Origin: Nitrospirales bacterium | GTDB lineage: Bacteria > Nitrospirota > Nitrospiria > Nitrospirales > UBA8639 | Length of the DNA: 64,000 nucleotides | Assembly (NCBI GenBank): GCA_965223295.1 | Contig: CBDCWC010000003.1 | Location: forward strand, 1,056,001 to 1,120,000 | Direction of reading: 5' to 3' | Shown: one piece after another, positions 47,619-55,635 of the stretch | Layout of the letters: every line of letters begins with the position of its first letter | Position numbering within the stretch: the stretch's first letter is position 1 | The notes under the pieces: model-generated | Told to the model about the DNA's origin: nothing | The model's database searches: none | What the model saw: only the letters and a program-made list of their open reading frames with translations | Program-made: the position numbers and the translations under genes

Positions 47619-48335
47619 ATGCCATTTGCAAGCCCTTCTGAGCTTTTAGGATCCCTCGGATTATTGTCAATTGTTATTCTGTTGATTCTGTCAGTGTTTT
47701 CAATCATTTCCTGGGGAATCATCGTGAATAAATTCCGACAGTTTCGGAAAATCAATCAGGAGGAAGCACAATTTCTCCAACTATATGAAAAGAACCCCGT
47801 TGATCAGCTGGCACTAAGAACTAAAGCCCAGACATATCCGCTCAGCCCTAGTGCAGCCGTGTACCTCAGTGTGACGGACCGGCTTCCCTCATGCTCCTAT
47901 CTTTTCTCCTCTCGAGAGGAGATTGAGAACTCAGGCTCTGAAAAAATTCCCAATCGTCATTACTTGGAAAAAGTCACCCAATACATTATTCAGAATCAAA
48001 TTACCCATCAAGAAGCCTATTTACCCTTTCTGGCAACCACCGGAAATTTGACGCCATTTATTGGGCTCCTTGGAACCGTGTTAGGGATTATTAACGCGTT
48101 TGGAGAGATTGGAGTACAAGGGTCGGCCAGTATTGCGGCTGTCGCCCCCGGTGTTTCTGAAGCGCTCGTTGCGACTGCTGCCGGTCTCTTTGCCGCCATT
48201 CCGGCTGTGATGGCGTTTAACTTTTTTCTTTCCAAAATCAGGAAAATGGCTTTTAGCGTTGAAGCCTTCACCATTGAGTTTCTGAATGCTCTTGAAGAGT
48301 CGGAAGTATCACATGAAGTGGAAGTGGCTAAATGA
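47619..48335 (+). CDS. tolQ: TolQ (MotA/TolQ/ExbB)
   Basis: [34 protein letters not shown]; first gene of the tol-pal cluster. Confidence 0.92.
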
Positions 48336-48769
48336 CGAGTGGGTCTCGTCCAAGACAATTTCTGTCTGAAATCAATGTCATTCCCCTCGTCGATGTCGTC
48401 CTTGTGCTGCTTGTGATCTTTATGGTCACGGCTCCCATGTTACATCGGGGGTTGGACATCAATTTACCAACTTCTGCCGCCAATAATATCAAGGCAGAAG
48501 AACGGCTGGTTGTCACCATACAGAAAGACCATAGTTTGTCCCTAGGGAATGATCCCATCAGCCTGATTGACCTCAGAGCAAAGTTGCAGGCAGCCAAAAC
48601 TTCTAATCCCCTTATCTCGGTGTACCTACGGGCCGACCAATCCGTGCCCTACGGCACGGTTGTCCAAATCATGGATGAAGTGAAGGGGGCGAAAATTGAA
48701 CGGCTGGGAATGGTGACAGGGCCAAAAGTTGAAACGATTGAAGCCGATGCGATCGGAGTCACCCCTTAA
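48332..48769 (+). CDS. tolR: TolR (ExbD/TolR)
   Basis: [34 protein letters not shown]. Confidence 0.92.
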
Positions 48770-48780
48770 CATTCCGTTAC

Positions 48781-50334
48781 ATGGAACATGCTGCACCCTC
48801 AAGCCTTATTTCTTTTGGGCTCACGGCTGACACCTCTTCAGAACGATCATCATTTCGTAGTGGTCTTCTTTTTTCTTGCCTTCTGCATGCCCTCATCATT
48901 GTCATCGCCATGTTCGTAAGATTTCAATCAGAGAGCGAGCAACCCCTTCGAGCTATTGATGTCGCGTTGATTTCACTGCCAGCGCAGACCCCAGCGCCAC
49001 CAAGTCCAAAACCGGCTGTCAGTCCGAAGACAAAGCCTTCTCCTAAACCAACTCCTGCGCCTGTGAAAAAAGCCGTGAAGGCTCAACCGACTCCTAAAAA
49101 AGTTGTCCCACCTGCACCGAAACCGATCACTCCACCAGCCGTTGCTCCCCCTGTTGAAGACATCCTTCCTCCATTACCAACCGAGACGGCTTCTGAGCAA
49201 TTGTCTGAATCGTTAAGTGGAGCGATTAAATCCATCGTGGTGCCTCAAAAACGAGAAACACCGGCCTCAAGTGCTCCCCCTTCACAACCAGACAGTCCGC
49301 CCACTGACGAGCAGACCCCTTTAATAGATAAACTGCAATTACCTTCTGCTCCACCTACAATCGCGCGTCCCCAGCGGTTACAGCGGGGAGAGTCTGTGCC
49401 AATTCCTTCAGTACCTGAGACAGCATCGCCGAAAGTGACACAAGAGCCAGCGGCCCCTCCGAAACCCGAACCAAAACAATCTGCTGTCCCAGTATCGAAA
49501 GTTGAGCAAACAGTGAAACCTGCACCTGCTCCGCCATCCTTGCGCGAAGTGACGCCCTTTCAGAAGCCAAAACAACCACCAACACCTGCGAACAATTCCC
49601 CGGCTCCCAAGATAAAAGACTCATTGAAACGTAGTCTTCCCGACATTCCCCTCGCAACTCCAGCGAATAAGATTCCGAAGGTTTCTCGGAAACGCCCATC
49701 ACCTCAGCAAAAGCCTGCATCGTCAATCCCACAGGTCTCCGCTCCTCAAATGGCGAAAATTCCCGATCCCAAACCATCAAAACCTATCGAGCCAGCAGTA
49801 CCTAAAATGTCGGAGACGGTTAAAAAATTGATGGAAGGGCTTAAAACTCCCAGGCGTACGCTAACACCCAGAGAGACTCCAACGAAATCTTCTACGCCAA
49901 CTATCCCAGCCACCAAGCCACCTCCATCAGCCATCGATCAGAGAATTGCGAAATTGTCTATACCCGAGGTGGCCCCAGTGGAGTCGATCAAGCAACGACT
50001 GCAACTGTTGGACAGGCAAGCCACTGGCAGCGCCGGTGGTGCTGCGTCTAAACCCTCACCAGGGAAAAATCGGTATTTGGCGATGGTGGAAGATACGATT
50101 GACCGCCAGTGGGTAGCCCCTCCTTTAGTGGCCAGTACCCCCGTGGTGGTCTTGAAATTTCGTATTTCCCGATCAGGCGACATTTCACGTATTCATATTA
50201 CGGAAAGCTCGGGACATGCTCACTATGACTCCGCAGCCCAACGTGCCGTTCAAGCGGTCAATCCCTTGCCACCATTCCCCTCGGAGATTACGGATTCATT
50301 CTTTGATGTTCAGTATCGATTTATTAAAGATTAA
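48781..50334 (+). CDS. tolA: TolA/TonB-family energy transducer with very long Pro-rich linker
   Basis: TM with SCLLH motif, Pro/Lys-rich linker, C-terminal SSG...YDSAAQRAV...PLPPFP; located between tolR and tolB. Confidence 0.82.
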   Translation: MEHAAPSSLISFGLTADTSSERSSFRSGLLFSCLLHALIIVIAMFVRFQSESEQPLRAIDVALISLPAQTPAPPSPKPAVSPKTKPSPKPTPAPVKKAVKAQPTPKKVVPPAPKPITPPAVAPPVEDILPPLPTETASEQLSESLSGAIKSIVVPQKRETPASSAPPSQPDSPPTDEQTPLIDKLQLPSAPPTIARPQRLQRGESVPIPSVPETASPKVTQEPAAPPKPEPKQSAVPVSKVEQTVKPAPAPPSLREVTPFQKPKQPPTPANNSPAPKIKDSLKRSLPDIPLATPANKIPKVSRKRPSPQQKPASSIPQVSAPQMAKIPDPKPSKPIEPAVPKMSETVKKLMEGLKTPRRTLTPRETPTKSSTPTIPATKPPPSAIDQRIAKLSIPEVAPVESIKQRLQLLDRQATGSAGGAASKPSPGKNRYLAMVEDTIDRQWVAPPLVASTPVVVLKFRISRSGDISRIHITESSGHAHYDSAAQRAVQAVNPLPPFPSEITDSFFDVQYRFIKD

Positions 50335-50352
50335 AAGGACCTAGTCTGTATC

Positions 50353-51711
50353 ATGAAAATTTTTCTCTATCGACCTCGTCATTTTCTTCTTTGTGTGCTT
50401 TTGTTGTTCACCTTCATGATTCCGTCGTTGATTTTTGGAGAAGACGCGATCCTCGAAGCCACCCGTTCAGAATTTCAAAAGATTCCTATCTGGGTCATGG
50501 AATTTTCATCCGTAGAACAGGACGACTCCATGTCTAAGCAGACTGATACACAAGTACGATCGATACTAAAACAAGACTTAGTTCGTTCTCAGGTTTTTAC
50601 TCTCGCTGATTTGCCGACCAAAAAAGGTGGATTTTCTGAGAATAAATGCGTGAGTCTCTCTCCAAGCTTAGGAACGCATTACCAACAAGTCACGGTGTCA
50701 ACGTGGGGCAGAATGGGTCTTGGCGGAACCTCAACCGGTGTCAAAGGATTGATCTTTGATGCCTGCGCCTTTGATCTCGGCCACCAAGATATTTTAACGG
50801 GGAAGCGGTATTTTTCTCTCAAATCCACAGATGCCCTCATTCGACTCATGGCTCATCGATGGGCCGACGAGTTGGTCTACCGATACACAGGAGAACAAGG
50901 TATTGCCAGAACTAAAATTGCCTTTGTGGGAGAGAAGGAAAACGGGCGAGAGTTGTTCGTAATGGATTATGACGGATATGACCCACAGCAGGTCACGGCG
51001 GATGGCTATCTCAATCTTATGCCAACCTGGTCACCAGACCGCAAGTCCCTCATCTACACAGCCTATCGAGATCGAAAACAACAAATCATGCGACGTGAGC
51101 TCTCAACAGGCCGGGAGGAGGTGCTCGTCTCGCCAGCCAGTTTGAACATCACGGCAACCTTCTCCCCAAATGGCCAATCGATTACTTATGCCTCGGCTCA
51201 AGAGGGCAATTCAGACATCTACCAGGTAGAATTGGACAGTAGAACTTCCCAGCAGTTAACCTCTCATCATAGTGCAGATTTGTCCCCGTCTTGGTCGCCG
51301 GACGGGCGGCATCTGGCCTTCACATCGGATCGGGGAGGCCGTCCCCAAATTTATGTCATGGATGCGGAAGGCTCTAACGTCCGACGACTTACGTATGACG
51401 GAGACTACAACGCAGCTCCTGCATGGTCTCCAAAAGGGGATTGGATTGTCTATGTCTGCCGTATACCGGGTGAAGGATTTAAACTCTGCCGGATCAGCCC
51501 AGATGGGAAGCAACGAAACCAAATTACCAAAGGGAATAGTATTGACGATTCTCCGTCATGGGCCCCCAATGGGCGTCATCTCGTTTTCAGTTCTATTCGA
51601 AGAGGAGAAAGCCAAATCTTCATTATTACAAGCGAAGGAGCCGGATTAGAAAAAATTTCCTCGGTGGGCGCACACCTTAGTTCGCCATCCTGGTCGCCGT
51701 TTCAACCTTAA
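50353..51711 (+). CDS. tolB: TolB beta-propeller protein
   Basis: AHRWADE...TGEQG, TKIAFV, MDYDG, repeated PxWSPDG (PD40) motifs. Confidence 0.92.
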   Translation: MKIFLYRPRHFLLCVLLLFTFMIPSLIFGEDAILEATRSEFQKIPIWVMEFSSVEQDDSMSKQTDTQVRSILKQDLVRSQVFTLADLPTKKGGFSENKCVSLSPSLGTHYQQVTVSTWGRMGLGGTSTGVKGLIFDACAFDLGHQDILTGKRYFSLKSTDALIRLMAHRWADELVYRYTGEQGIARTKIAFVGEKENGRELFVMDYDGYDPQQVTADGYLNLMPTWSPDRKSLIYTAYRDRKQQIMRRELSTGREEVLVSPASLNITATFSPNGQSITYASAQEGNSDIYQVELDSRTSQQLTSHHSADLSPSWSPDGRHLAFTSDRGGRPQIYVMDAEGSNVRRLTYDGDYNAAPAWSPKGDWIVYVCRIPGEGFKLCRISPDGKQRNQITKGNSIDDSPSWAPNGRHLVFSSIRRGESQIFIITSEGAGLEKISSVGAHLSSPSWSPFQP

Positions 51712-51753
51712 ACAATGAGAGCCTCTGTGATATTTCAGCAAAGGAGTCGCCGT

Positions 51754-52767
51754 ATGCACCAGAACATTCGTGTACGTTCACTACTAGGAATTTTCAGTCT
51801 TGTCTTCGTAATGCTCACGGGATGCGGAGAGAAACGGGTTCATGTCTCCACGGCCTCCGGAGCCCCTGGCGAAGACATGGCCTTGAATGGAATGACTGAT
51901 GACTTGGCTGACCAAGCAACATCTGGCTTAAACACTGCCGGAATTGACGAATCAGCCCTGTCGTCCCAAGTTCCCGATGGTGAGACTACTAACACAGACA
52001 CAACCGCCTCTTCTATTGGGAATGAACCTCTCAATATGGCGCATGCCCCTGCACACTTTTCTCCACAGGATCATTCTTCAGACTCTTCAGACGCCTCCCT
52101 GGCAGATGAGTTGGCCAATGCCGGAGGTTCAGAAAATGATAGTTCGTCTCCCTCGATGTCGAAGGGGAAGGGTTTCTCAACACAATCCAGTTCATTTCCG
52201 GGAGATCAAGCGAACCAATCATCAGAAAATAGCGGCGAATTTCAGAATTCAGCGAACTCTGAACCTTTAGATACCGGGGTTTCTCAAGATTCCCTGGCCG
52301 GGCTAGAGGATATTCTCTCGGGAGAAAACCTAGAATCGATACCCGACACATTGCAAATCGCCAAGGTCGAGCCTTCTAGTGGGTTGGAAGACCGGATGAA
52401 TCAAATTAATGAAGAAGAACTTGAAGCCGCAAAGGCAGGTCTAGAAGATGTCTTTTTCAAATTTGATAGTTGGACCCTTACCCAGGAAGGCAAGGAATCA
52501 CTCCAACGGACGCTTGGGTGGTTCAAGCAGGAACCTGACTCCACGCTCATTATCGAGGGCCATGCAGACCAACGAGGAACACAAGCGTATAATATGGTGT
52601 TGGCCAAAAAACGTGCGGTCGCGGTCCAAGACTATCTGTCACAATTAGGTGTTGACGGATCTCGTATGTCTGTCATCTCCTATGGAAAAGATAAACCATT
52701 CTGCCAGGATTCTACAGAAGTCTGCCATCAACTCAACCGTCGGGGGCATCTTCTGGTCGCAAATTAG
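51754..52767 (+). CDS. pal: Pal (OmpA-like peptidoglycan-binding lipoprotein) with ~200-aa disordered linker
   Basis: Lipobox LTGC; C-terminal DVFFKFDS, IEGHADQRGT..YN..LA..RA, SYGK..P, NRR; AGGAG RBS before MHQN. Confidence 0.88.
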   Translation: MHQNIRVRSLLGIFSLVFVMLTGCGEKRVHVSTASGAPGEDMALNGMTDDLADQATSGLNTAGIDESALSSQVPDGETTNTDTTASSIGNEPLNMAHAPAHFSPQDHSSDSSDASLADELANAGGSENDSSSPSMSKGKGFSTQSSSFPGDQANQSSENSGEFQNSANSEPLDTGVSQDSLAGLEDILSGENLESIPDTLQIAKVEPSSGLEDRMNQINEEELEAAKAGLEDVFFKFDSWTLTQEGKESLQRTLGWFKQEPDSTLIIEGHADQRGTQAYNMVLAKKRAVAVQDYLSQLGVDGSRMSVISYGKDKPFCQDSTEVCHQLNRRGHLLVAN

Positions 52768-52820: not shown

Positions 52821-54614
52821 GTGATACCTGGAGGGATTGCTAAGGCTCTTGTTAAAGGAATGCTGCTTGTTGGCTTGTTTGGCGGGCTGGAGATCGGTTG
52901 TGTGGCACAACAAGCCGATGTTGCGAGAATCCAAAAGGATTTGGAACAACAGATTAGCCAACTGAAATCAGAAAAAGTTGCATTGGGCCAAGAAGTTCTT
53001 GAAGCACGGTCAGCGATTGCCGACTCTAAAAAATTGATAGATGTTCAAAAAGCCGACATGAATAAGATGCGCAGAGACCTGGCCCCCCTGAATCAACAAA
53101 TCAAACTTCTGCGGGAGCAGGATTTAACCACCTTGTACGGTCAAGTTGAAGTGACAGAGAAGAGAGTTTCAGATCTTCGCCGGGATTTCGACAGTCAGAA
53201 AGAAAAACTTGGTGCTGAAATCCAAGCGCTTCAAAAGACGACACAGGCTCAAGGAGAACAGCAACAGCAAAGCCAAGCTCAGGCAGATGTGTTTGCCCAA
53301 CAAGTTGATGAAAAGAATCAGGCCTTAACAGAAAAAATGACCGAATTTCAAACAGCATTCGGTGAATTCAAAGAATCATTGCTGAGTCTAGGAAACGATA
53401 TTAGTCAAGCGCAAACCAATATTGGCAGTCTTCAAACTGATGTGGTCACCCAAGGTCAAACTCTGAGCTCTCTGCAAACTGATTCAGGAAATCTTGAGCA
53501 ATCATTGAATCAGGTGAAGCAAGCCTTAGAACAATCGGGGACGGCTTTCGGAAGCCAAATTGAACAACAAGCTGATCAATTCACGGCCTTGCAAAAGCAA
53601 GTGAACGCTCTCCAGGACAAGTTGAACGCCGATACTCAGGCTCTGCGGACCTTCCTGGAACAAGATGTCAAAACAGCCATGGATCAAGTGGTTGTCGACA
53701 TGGAGGCCAGACAAATTCCGATGGACCAAAAGATTACTGACCTACAATCTGATATAGAAGCATTAGGTAGCCACGTTCAAGCTGAGGCTACACAGGTCCA
53801 GGAACTTTCGCGGACTGTGGTCAAGCTTCGAGAAGCACAAGAAGTCATGGGGAGTTTGCTGGGCCAACGCGGTGATGAGATCATTCAACAAGCGGGGCGT
53901 TTATCAGAACGAATAAATTCTGTGGAAGCTCACCAAGCCAGTTTGACGGAACAACTTCAATCCAATACCAACACAACGTCAACCCATTTGACCGACGTGA
54001 ATGCTACGCTAACGTCACTTTCTCAAAGTCTTGATCAAACCACACAATCGCTTTCCGAGCGGCTCTCACAACAAGAACAAACCGTGGCTAGCCTTAATCA
54101 ATCTATTCAGGACTTTCAGCAACTGAAAAGTGAAACGCAGGGTCAAATTCAAGAAATGCAAGCCATTACCCAGGTCTCAAAGCAGATTCGCCAGAATGTC
54201 GAACAACTAGGGAAACGTATGCAAGATTTGGAAATCCACCAAGCAAACCTTGTTGGGAAACTTGACTCTGATGCGCAGTTGACCACAACCCATCTTCAAG
54301 ACGTGAATAAGGGCATCAAATCAGTTGCGGAGGCTTTGGAGAATGTCAGCGAAAAATTGAATTCACGAATCGCAAATCAGGAACGGCAACTCAATAGAGC
54401 CGTTACCAAATTCCAAAGCGTGCCGAATGCTGCAGAGCTTTCCCGATCCAATGCCCAACACTTGAATGATTTAAGCGGAACCATGAATCAACTGCAGGAA
54501 GTCATCACCACAATTGGAACCAAGTTGGGAGAACGGGTGGACGAACACGAGGGTCGCTTGGGTCAATTGGCCCAACGGGTTAATCAATTGCAGGGGGCAA
54601 AAGCAAAAAAATAA
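52821..54614 (+). CDS. Long coiled-coil lipoprotein in the tol-pal operon
   Basis: GGAGG RBS; lipobox-like EIGC; Q/E/L-rich heptads for about 570 aa; ends AKAKK. Confidence 0.8.
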   Translation: MIPGGIAKALVKGMLLVGLFGGLEIGCVAQQADVARIQKDLEQQISQLKSEKVALGQEVLEARSAIADSKKLIDVQKADMNKMRRDLAPLNQQIKLLREQDLTTLYGQVEVTEKRVSDLRRDFDSQKEKLGAEIQALQKTTQAQGEQQQQSQAQADVFAQQVDEKNQALTEKMTEFQTAFGEFKESLLSLGNDISQAQTNIGSLQTDVVTQGQTLSSLQTDSGNLEQSLNQVKQALEQSGTAFGSQIEQQADQFTALQKQVNALQDKLNADTQALRTFLEQDVKTAMDQVVVDMEARQIPMDQKITDLQSDIEALGSHVQAEATQVQELSRTVVKLREAQEVMGSLLGQRGDEIIQQAGRLSERINSVEAHQASLTEQLQSNTNTTSTHLTDVNATLTSLSQSLDQTTQSLSERLSQQEQTVASLNQSIQDFQQLKSETQGQIQEMQAITQVSKQIRQNVEQLGKRMQDLEIHQANLVGKLDSDAQLTTTHLQDVNKGIKSVAEALENVSEKLNSRIANQERQLNRAVTKFQSVPNAAELSRSNAQHLNDLSGTMNQLQEVITTIGTKLGERVDEHEGRLGQLAQRVNQLQGAKAKK

Positions 54615-54735: not shown

Positions 54736-55635
54736 ATGTATAGAATTATGACGCGGTCAATTCTCTGGGTTTCATCCTTGTCTCTTCTCCTCGTGGGAGG
54801 AGGCTGCGCCACAGAACCTAATTTGGCAGATTTGAAGAAACAGGTTCAGGCCCTGACACTTCAGCAAGAAGCTGCTCAGCAGGAAGAAAAGCAGGCCCGC
54901 GACCGTCTCTCGGCTATAGAATCCCAATTGGATGAACATGACTTTTTGGTTGGAGAGTTAATCAAGACTGAAGAAGAAGCCAATTTAGACACTCGGCACT
55001 TGTTGGAGAAACTCGAACGAACGAGCACCATGTTGAGAGAGCAAATTGAGCAAACCCGTTCTTCCACAAAACGACGGGACCAAGATTTATCCATTCGAGT
55101 GAAAGCCATAGAGGCACGAATTGATAACATTTTACATCGTCCGCGTCCTGGAGCATCGCAAATTAAGACTCCTGAACCTGTACAAAATGGTCAGAAGACT
55201 CCATCCACCGTTCCATTGACTCAACCTCGATCCACTTCGGAAGACTCTCAAATGGAGAATGAAGCCTCGGCATTTCGATCGGCCTACAAAGTCTACTTGA
55301 ATGGGAACTATGACCGAGCCTCAAGCGAATTCCAACGATTCGTCAAGCACTATCCATCAACAGCGCTGACCCCGCAAGCATTTTATTATCTTGGGCAATC
55401 CCTCTACGTTCAGAAACATTATGATCCTGCACAAGAAGCGCTCCAGCATGTTGTCACCGACTTTCCCAATACCAAATACCGTAGCCAGGCACTCTATAAG
55501 CTTGGGCAAATCATGTTCGAAACCGATCAACGGTCTAAAGCGCAGGACCTGTGGAACCAAGTGATTCGGGATTATCCAGATTCCCCTGAAGCCAGTACAG
55601 CCAAGGAGCAACTACAAAAAGCGGACTTATCCTGA
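54736..55635 (+). CDS. cpoB: CpoB (YbgF) tol-pal protein
   Basis: Lipobox GGC, coiled coil, then three TPRs (FVKHYP, AFYYLG, ALYKLG, YPDSPEA). Confidence 0.85.
   Translation: MYRIMTRSILWVSSLSLLLVGGGCATEPNLADLKKQVQALTLQQEAAQQEEKQARDRLSAIESQLDEHDFLVGELIKTEEEANLDTRHLLEKLERTSTMLREQIEQTRSSTKRRDQDLSIRVKAIEARIDNILHRPRPGASQIKTPEPVQNGQKTPSTVPLTQPRSTSEDSQMENEASAFRSAYKVYLNGNYDRASSEFQRFVKHYPSTALTPQAFYYLGQSLYVQKHYDPAQEALQHVVTDFPNTKYRSQALYKLGQIMFETDQRSKAQDLWNQVIRDYPDSPEASTAKEQLQKADLS

Follow-up and report, generated by a model that had tools for sequence, protein, structure and literature searches.

The window analyzed here, a stretch of 64,000 nucleotides from a Nitrospirales genome, contains a tol-pal locus with the gene order tolQ-tolR-tolA-tolB-pal-[rod gene]-cpoB-mutL-miaA, in which the bracketed gene encodes the protein that we term the rod. 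The genes tolQ, tolR, a Pro-rich tolA (517 aa), and tolB occupy positions 47619..51711 (+ strand) and are followed on the same strand by pal (51715..52767), whose product carries a long acidic low-complexity linker (about 200 residues) ahead of the OmpA-like domain. The rod gene, an ORF with a GTG start (52821..54614, + strand), begins 53 nt past the end of pal and codes for a predicted coiled-coil lipoprotein of 597 aa with the C-terminus ...NQLQGAKAKK. After a gap of 121 nt comes a separate, short cpoB/ybgF gene (54736..55635, + strand), whose product combines a lipoprotein signal, a short coiled coil, and TPRs and matches TIGR02795, our reference for CpoB/YbgF along with PDB 2XEV and 6G5S, with 104.6 bits (cut-off 90.1). 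The slot between pal and a complete cpoB and the QGAKAKK ending are as an earlier, sequence-only reading of this DNA had described them. A promoter and terminator scan at the locus gave results at or below chance.

The rod protein has a single cysteine, residue 27 (LEIG-C), which follows a basic and hydrophobic leader and ends a predicted type II signal peptide (52821..52901, + strand), although the Glu at position -3 is atypical for a lipobox. Cys27 is invariant in 43/43 aligned homologs, a start of the LEIG-C-VAQQAD type, as in long CpoB proteins, occurs in 113 of 121 homologs, and LspA is present in 20/20 genomes; the glycine-cysteine pair is the one that the sequence-only reading noted with the signal peptide. 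The mature chain of 571 residues, ~85 nm long as a straight helix, has a heptad score of 158.9 (100 shuffles: 78.1 ± 5.7, maximum 97.8) and L, I, V, M, or F at 68% of its 160 core positions. It contains merely three prolines, as had been claimed, and the heptads are likewise real, but with eight register breaks their description as nearly uninterrupted was slightly generous. Searches against Pfam and NCBIfam recovered no TPR and no globular family, with no match to PF16331 in Pfam; the matches obtained, including those to SMC, apolipoprotein, and DUF1664, are generic to coiled coils and were set aside as identities. A profile search of the PDB also returned generic coiled coils only. AlphaFold2 models are helical throughout, with low confidence for the whole chain (pLDDT 58.6, pTM 0.21) and a pLDDT of 73.6 for the C-terminal half, which agrees with the earlier view that the protein lacks globular and TPR domains. 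A homotrimer prediction for residues 300-597 reached a median of 0.35 (mark 0.42) and is given no weight here, Foldseek with the C-terminal half gave no match at E 0.001, and the ESM Atlas gave nothing at 0.9 or above.

A protein search recovered 132 rod relatives, none of the 120 listed being assigned a TPR family, and the named organisms among the matches listed belong to Nitrospirales or Nitrospirota. Within the genus of the window's genome (g1), an orthologue is found in 22/24 genomes, the two misses being 74% and 59% complete. At 55 GTDB loci the gene lies between pal and the short cpoB wherever the flanks are present, and at 51/51 closed-end g1 loci the protein stops just past the same terminal motif. 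This common stop shows that the end of the ORF is not a frameshift artefact, and a frameshifted or truncated cpoB was thereby ruled out; no fusion proteins of greater length (1046-2985 aa) turned up when looked for, which is weak evidence. In one record (L087), splits affect the rod orthologue as well as cpoB and mutL, pointing to assembly errors and not to pseudogenes. The rod-bearing family is taken to be lineage IV (UBA8639), because the gene order of Nitrospira marina matches and on the basis of PMC12342949.

Among 113 homologs, with mature lengths of 501-638 residues, most length-changing indels fall in the N-terminal coiled coil (residues 27-265; 52899..53615, + strand), and residues 207-266 have about 33% gaps. 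Residues 267-596, in turn, show a column conservation of 0.72-0.91 with at most 3% gaps per alignment window, and the conserved C-terminal half (residues 300-591; 53718..54593, + strand) is nearly indel-free, with deletions in a few distant orthologues. Ten of the 15 columns that are invariant across both this genus and its sister genus (g8) fall in the terminal motif N-x3-LN-x-L...QL...G-x-KLG-x2-VD-x-HE (residues 544-577; 54450..54551, + strand), that is, before and not in the basic tail GAKAKK (54594..54611, + strand), whose last residue varies among orthologues.

The occupants of the same slot in related taxa point to the origin of the rod. In the sister family (f2), a lipoprotein of 449-571 aa that begins with C-AQQAD and runs through a long coiled coil into TPRs precedes the short cpoB at 18/18 loci read out of 19 genomes, the nineteenth showing the same tandem pair. 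A coiled coil with this start and with TPRs likewise fills the slot at 2/2 loci read in a further family (f3), and a rod query found no match in three other f3 genomes and five genomes of another family (f4). The continuation of orthologues into TPRs, a check proposed with the sequence-only reading against its Lpp-like model, is thus seen across families but at none of the 51 g1 loci; the lack of conservation of the terminal Lys, another of these checks, is seen beyond the genus. Outside the order, six loci have a single cpoB of 280-353 aa after a Pal of 174-195 aa. The window's own genome additionally codes for a second Pal (240 aa) followed by a TPR-bearing long CpoB of 490 aa (G000:C2:1512555-1514759; L021:7556-9760, - strand); this genus-wide pair lies away from the tol operon, adjoins a GGDEF gene, and has a long CpoB of near-constant length (437-460 mature residues). 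In profile comparisons, the rod matched the family of this ectopic, TPR-bearing paralogue at 99.5%, and its N-terminal half matched the f2 long CpoB at 98.6%, whereas matches to short-CpoB coiled coils reached at most 1.5%. The C-terminal half yielded further stalk-module matches (98.2, 96.1, and 89.3%), indicating that it consists of repeated stalk modules at the place of the TPR head, and a BLASTP search with a rod module aligned it to an f2 long CpoB with 35% identity over 105 aa (E 2e-13).

Quick trees, in which none of the following branches was starred, placed the rod family beside the ectopic paralogue (SH-aLRT 89), separated the TPRs of long CpoBs from those of short CpoBs (SH-aLRT 88), and joined the operon Pals of g1 and f2 in one group (SH-aLRT 92), suggesting that the operon Pals are orthologous. 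The alternative grouping of the ectopic paralogue with f2 is not rejected (p-AU 0.31); the homology of rod and long CpoB is firm, the order of the duplications less so. We regard it as highly probable that the rod descends from the long CpoB of Nitrospirales, as a copy without TPRs that was expanded by repeats. This origin corresponds to the alternative entertained in the sequence-only reading, in which a CpoB coiled coil was duplicated and shed its TPRs. The rod is a CpoB derivative, neither CpoB proper nor Lpp. Like CpoB/YbgF, its gene directly follows pal in the tol-pal operon, and like the long Nitrospirales CpoB it has the C-AQQAD start and the stalk modules (98.6-99.5%); unlike the latter, its stalk is about twice as long by virtue of repeated modules, and it is not homologous to the stalk of the short CpoB. 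Unlike either form of CpoB, the rod has no C-terminal three-TPR domain (TIGR02795). In E. coli CpoB, a trimeric coiled coil, it is this TPR domain that binds TolA and PBP1B, according to PMC7391070.

All eight genomes of the sister genus g8, 2.1-2.6 Mb in size and 98-100% complete, have the rod gene, and the operon reads tolQ-R-A-B-[rod gene]-mutL in 5/5 cases read, both pal and cpoB being gone. TIGR02795 matches in one of the eight genomes, weakly (E 1e-12), and the window's CpoB as query gave weak matches only, in two of five genomes, one of them at a yfgM-like gene. Unlike CpoB itself, then, the rod is kept where TPR-bearing CpoBs were not found. The locus also suggests that the CpoB stalk has a function separate from that of the TPR head. 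The g8 genomes L180-L184 keep two or more Pal paralogues outside the tol operon, and the rod thus does not have to substitute for Pal. As to a possible link with the loss of a class A PBP in g8, g8 and some g1 genomes alike have a single long Transgly gene.

Published proteome data indicate how strongly the gene is expressed. In PMC8115632, gene 2597406557 of N. marina lies between the genes for Pal (..558) and YbgF (..556) and codes for a hypothetical protein of 578 aa, which we assign as the rod orthologue from gene order and length. By spectral counting (NSAF), the same source gives 0.092-0.111 for the rod, 0.086-0.111 for Pal, 0.077-0.100 for the short CpoB, 0.057-0.084 for the long CpoB, 0.063-0.092 for TolB, about 0.01 for TolA, and 0.6-1.0 for GroEL, with rod abundance unchanged under low oxygen. 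As far as these data go, the orthologue is expressed at a Pal-like and not an Lpp-like level.

The length of the rod varies in concert with those of its Tol-Pal neighbors. Within g1, longer mature rods go with longer Pal proteins (rho 0.86, n=44) and with a longer periplasmic part of TolA (rho 0.71, n=39); in the subset of loci with G handles, the values are 0.82 (n=17) and 0.95 (n=13), respectively. Independent contrasts, computed over a 53-locus TolB+MutL tree after removal of a split TolA and a mis-called Pal, gave in g1 r 0.61 for TolA (n=35, p 9e-5) and r 0.58 for the Pal linker (n=38, p 1e-4), as against r 0.06 for the MutL linker (n=30) and -0.17 for the short CpoB, while sign tests on these contrasts were weaker (TolA 20/33, p 0.3; Pal 23/33, p 0.035). 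The f2 contrasts point the same way (TolA r 0.67, n=11; Pal r 0.87, n=9). No such tracking of rod length is seen for FtsZ (rho -0.21, n=15), for the N-terminus of IF-2 (rho -0.30, n=17), or for the long CpoB of the ectopic locus (rho 0.28, n=17, 437-459 aa); these values, like those of the G-handle subset, are raw correlations, and the control traits vary less than the test traits. The median lengths of rod, TolA, and Pal amount to 568/444/310 for g1 and 353/307/208 for f2 (there with the TPR subtracted from the rod counterpart), and mature Pal measures 278-372 aa in g1 as against 174-195 aa in total outside the order; the three lengths thus scale together and step up from other Nitrospirota through f2 to g1. 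The Nitrospira periplasm is 30-40 nm wide, so a straight rod of ~85 nm would have to tilt, bend, or lie partly flat. A large periplasm is described for Nitrospira in PMC3600790 and PMC13049253, and PMC5736177 reports that proteins spanning the envelope have to match the distance between the membranes, RcsF+7 rescuing Lpp+14. The rod resembles the RcsF linker, TolA domain II, and the Pal linker in that its length would have to fit the periplasm, its own co-varying with those of TolA and Pal across species; unlike these spanners, which carry a globular head on a flexible linker, it is helical end to end. Since its length tracks TolA and Pal, the rod likely spans the wide periplasm.

Several readings of such a protein have to be weighed. 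The sequence-only reading compared it to Braun's lipoprotein (Lpp), to which OprI is similar; on this model the rod would be a giant analogue whose C-terminal Lys an L,D-transpeptidase couples covalently to peptidoglycan, and it would set the distance from outer membrane to wall. The shared plan (a predicted lipid-bearing Cys, a coiled coil, and often a terminal Lys) invites the comparison, no Lpp was found in the window's genome, and a terminal Lys occurs in 114/121 database rod proteins and at 44/51 g1 loci, as compared to 7% of 2190 ORFs in the genome. The length of the rod is also plausibly tied to envelope spacing, as in Lpp, whose length sets membrane spacing according to PMC5736177, and PMC12274547 presents the Lpp box as permissive, a single terminal Lys being enough in Dickeya. 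Against this, the closest rod relative (82% identity) ends in KAQQ, and a terminal Lys is seen in just 2/8 g8 orthologues and in 14/33 distant representatives, these being the ones showing the terminal motif among 150 listed, some of them fragments. A Lys-to-Arg change (K79R) abolishes LppB attachment, and Lpp attachment requires both the C-terminal Lys and LdtA/B/C (PMC12681736). Neighboring genes conserve their last residue about equally well (TolB Pro 40/50), and the terminal Lys codon is AAA in 42/44 cases as against 65% genome-wide, which does not separate protein- from DNA-level constraint. YkuD was not found in 5/14 g1 carriers that are at least 90% complete, all five of whose rods end in Lys, nor in the 5/5 g8 genomes searched, but ErfK-like enzymes in some g1 genomes make covalent attachment possible in a subset. 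The window's own genome lacks a detectable YkuD_2, and its sole YkuD protein is of the YcbB type, with Scaffold and PG-binding domains and a PRK10594 match; the YcbB/LdtD type makes 3-3 cross-links. Unlike Lpp, moreover, the rod is CpoB-derived and ten times longer (571 mature residues versus about 58), shows no sequence match to PF04728, has no invariant terminal Lys, often occurs where attaching enzymes were not found, and is not super-abundant, with an NSAF of about 0.1, a tenth of GroEL, in the available N. marina data. An Lpp-type covalent link to the wall is therefore not supported, and we consider this reading very unlikely.

It is also unlikely, if less so, that the rod is a lateral scaffold polymerizing along membrane or wall as a filament or mesh, possibly anchored in the inner membrane, and shaping or stiffening the twisted-rod cell. 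At about 85 nm the protein is long for a radial strut, and its nearly indel-free, repeat-built C-terminal half is what staggered packing would predict; however, a radial distance is the simpler explanation for its co-variation in length with the TolA and Pal linkers, and the abundance in the N. marina dataset is modest. The stalk modules common to the rod and the TPR-bearing long CpoB, the adjacency of its gene to cpoB in g1, and a roughly 1:1 ratio to both CpoBs in those N. marina abundances would accord with an accessory or decoy that co-assembles with the CpoBs through the shared coiled coil, tuning how they oligomerize or where they sit but playing no independent part. Because the rod is kept in 8/8 g8 genomes, where TIGR02795 is matched weakly in one of eight and the CpoB query weakly in two of five, we judge such a dependence quite improbable. 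The loss of the functional TPR head might even suggest a degenerate leftover of duplication that drifts without function, but the column conservation of 0.72-0.91 over residues 267-596, the presence in 22/24 g1 genomes and all eight small-genome g8 relatives, and the expression recorded for N. marina leave this exceedingly improbable.

The explanation that we somewhat favor is that the rod, a predicted outer-membrane lipoprotein, spans the periplasm as a structural partner of TolQRAB, probably binding non-covalently at its far end. Two results speak for the spanning role, namely the co-evolution of rod length with the linkers of TolA and Pal and the retention of the gene behind tolB in g8. They lend indirect support to the ruler or tether acting with Tol-Pal proposed in the sequence-only reading, without its Lpp-like component. 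The protein would be lipidated at Cys27, sorted to the outer membrane, and assembled as a parallel coiled coil, perhaps a trimer by analogy with CpoB. The ~240 residues at its N-terminus, which as a single straight helix would measure about 36 nm, may act as an adjustable spacer that sets reach, as the long-CpoB stalk would do for the TPR, with the conserved C-terminal ~290 residues replacing the TPR as the working end; this half could bind TolA, peptidoglycan (via the basic tail), or more rod copies, in each case non-covalently. That the rod actively sets periplasm width, as opposed to only following it, seems doubtful to us. Nitrite oxidoreductase (NXR) sits in the enlarged Nitrospira periplasm, and the literature found offers no explanation for what keeps this compartment open; the rod is a candidate strut in bacteria without Lpp. 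We tentatively propose, while holding it to be on balance improbable, that in lineage IV Nitrospira a CpoB copy became a dedicated non-covalent ruler, a lipid-anchored coiled coil of up to 85 nm. Jointly with TolQRAB, and needing neither Lpp nor L,D-transpeptidases, this ruler would determine how wide the NXR-filled periplasm is, and it would be the sole outer-membrane partner kept in the tol operon after the loss of pal and cpoB. The three co-scaling lengths would allow periplasm width to be predicted from sequence. In the literature on Nitrospira Tol-Pal/YbgF and on CpoB coiled-coil lipoproteins that was consulted, mostly without subscription papers, the rod is not described.

Other genes of these families turned up in the course of the searches. 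The window's own genome has an unusually large Pal-like set (L200-L209), with 14 matches to the Pal model, eight of them at E below 1e-26, and its only YkuD gene, of the YcbB type (L040:218-2949), is divergent from a 330-aa gene with what we take to be a peptidase-M15-like motif. An f3 tol-pal operon has pal duplicated in tandem (L028:5349-6601), and one f2 genome codes outside the tol operon for a 587-aa YbgF-like TPR protein with no match to the long-CpoB stalk (L173:3809-5572). At L036:5918-7686 and L035:4960-6341, in a different gene context, a further pal-like gene precedes one for a coiled-coil lipoprotein that lacks TPRs and is shorter (337 aa in L036); a pal-like gene of the window's own genome that groups with these (L206:38-2223) is followed by a 457-aa predicted lipoprotein assigned to no family. 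The L035/L036 lipoprotein is weakly similar to the long-CpoB stalk and possibly represents a second loss of the TPRs.
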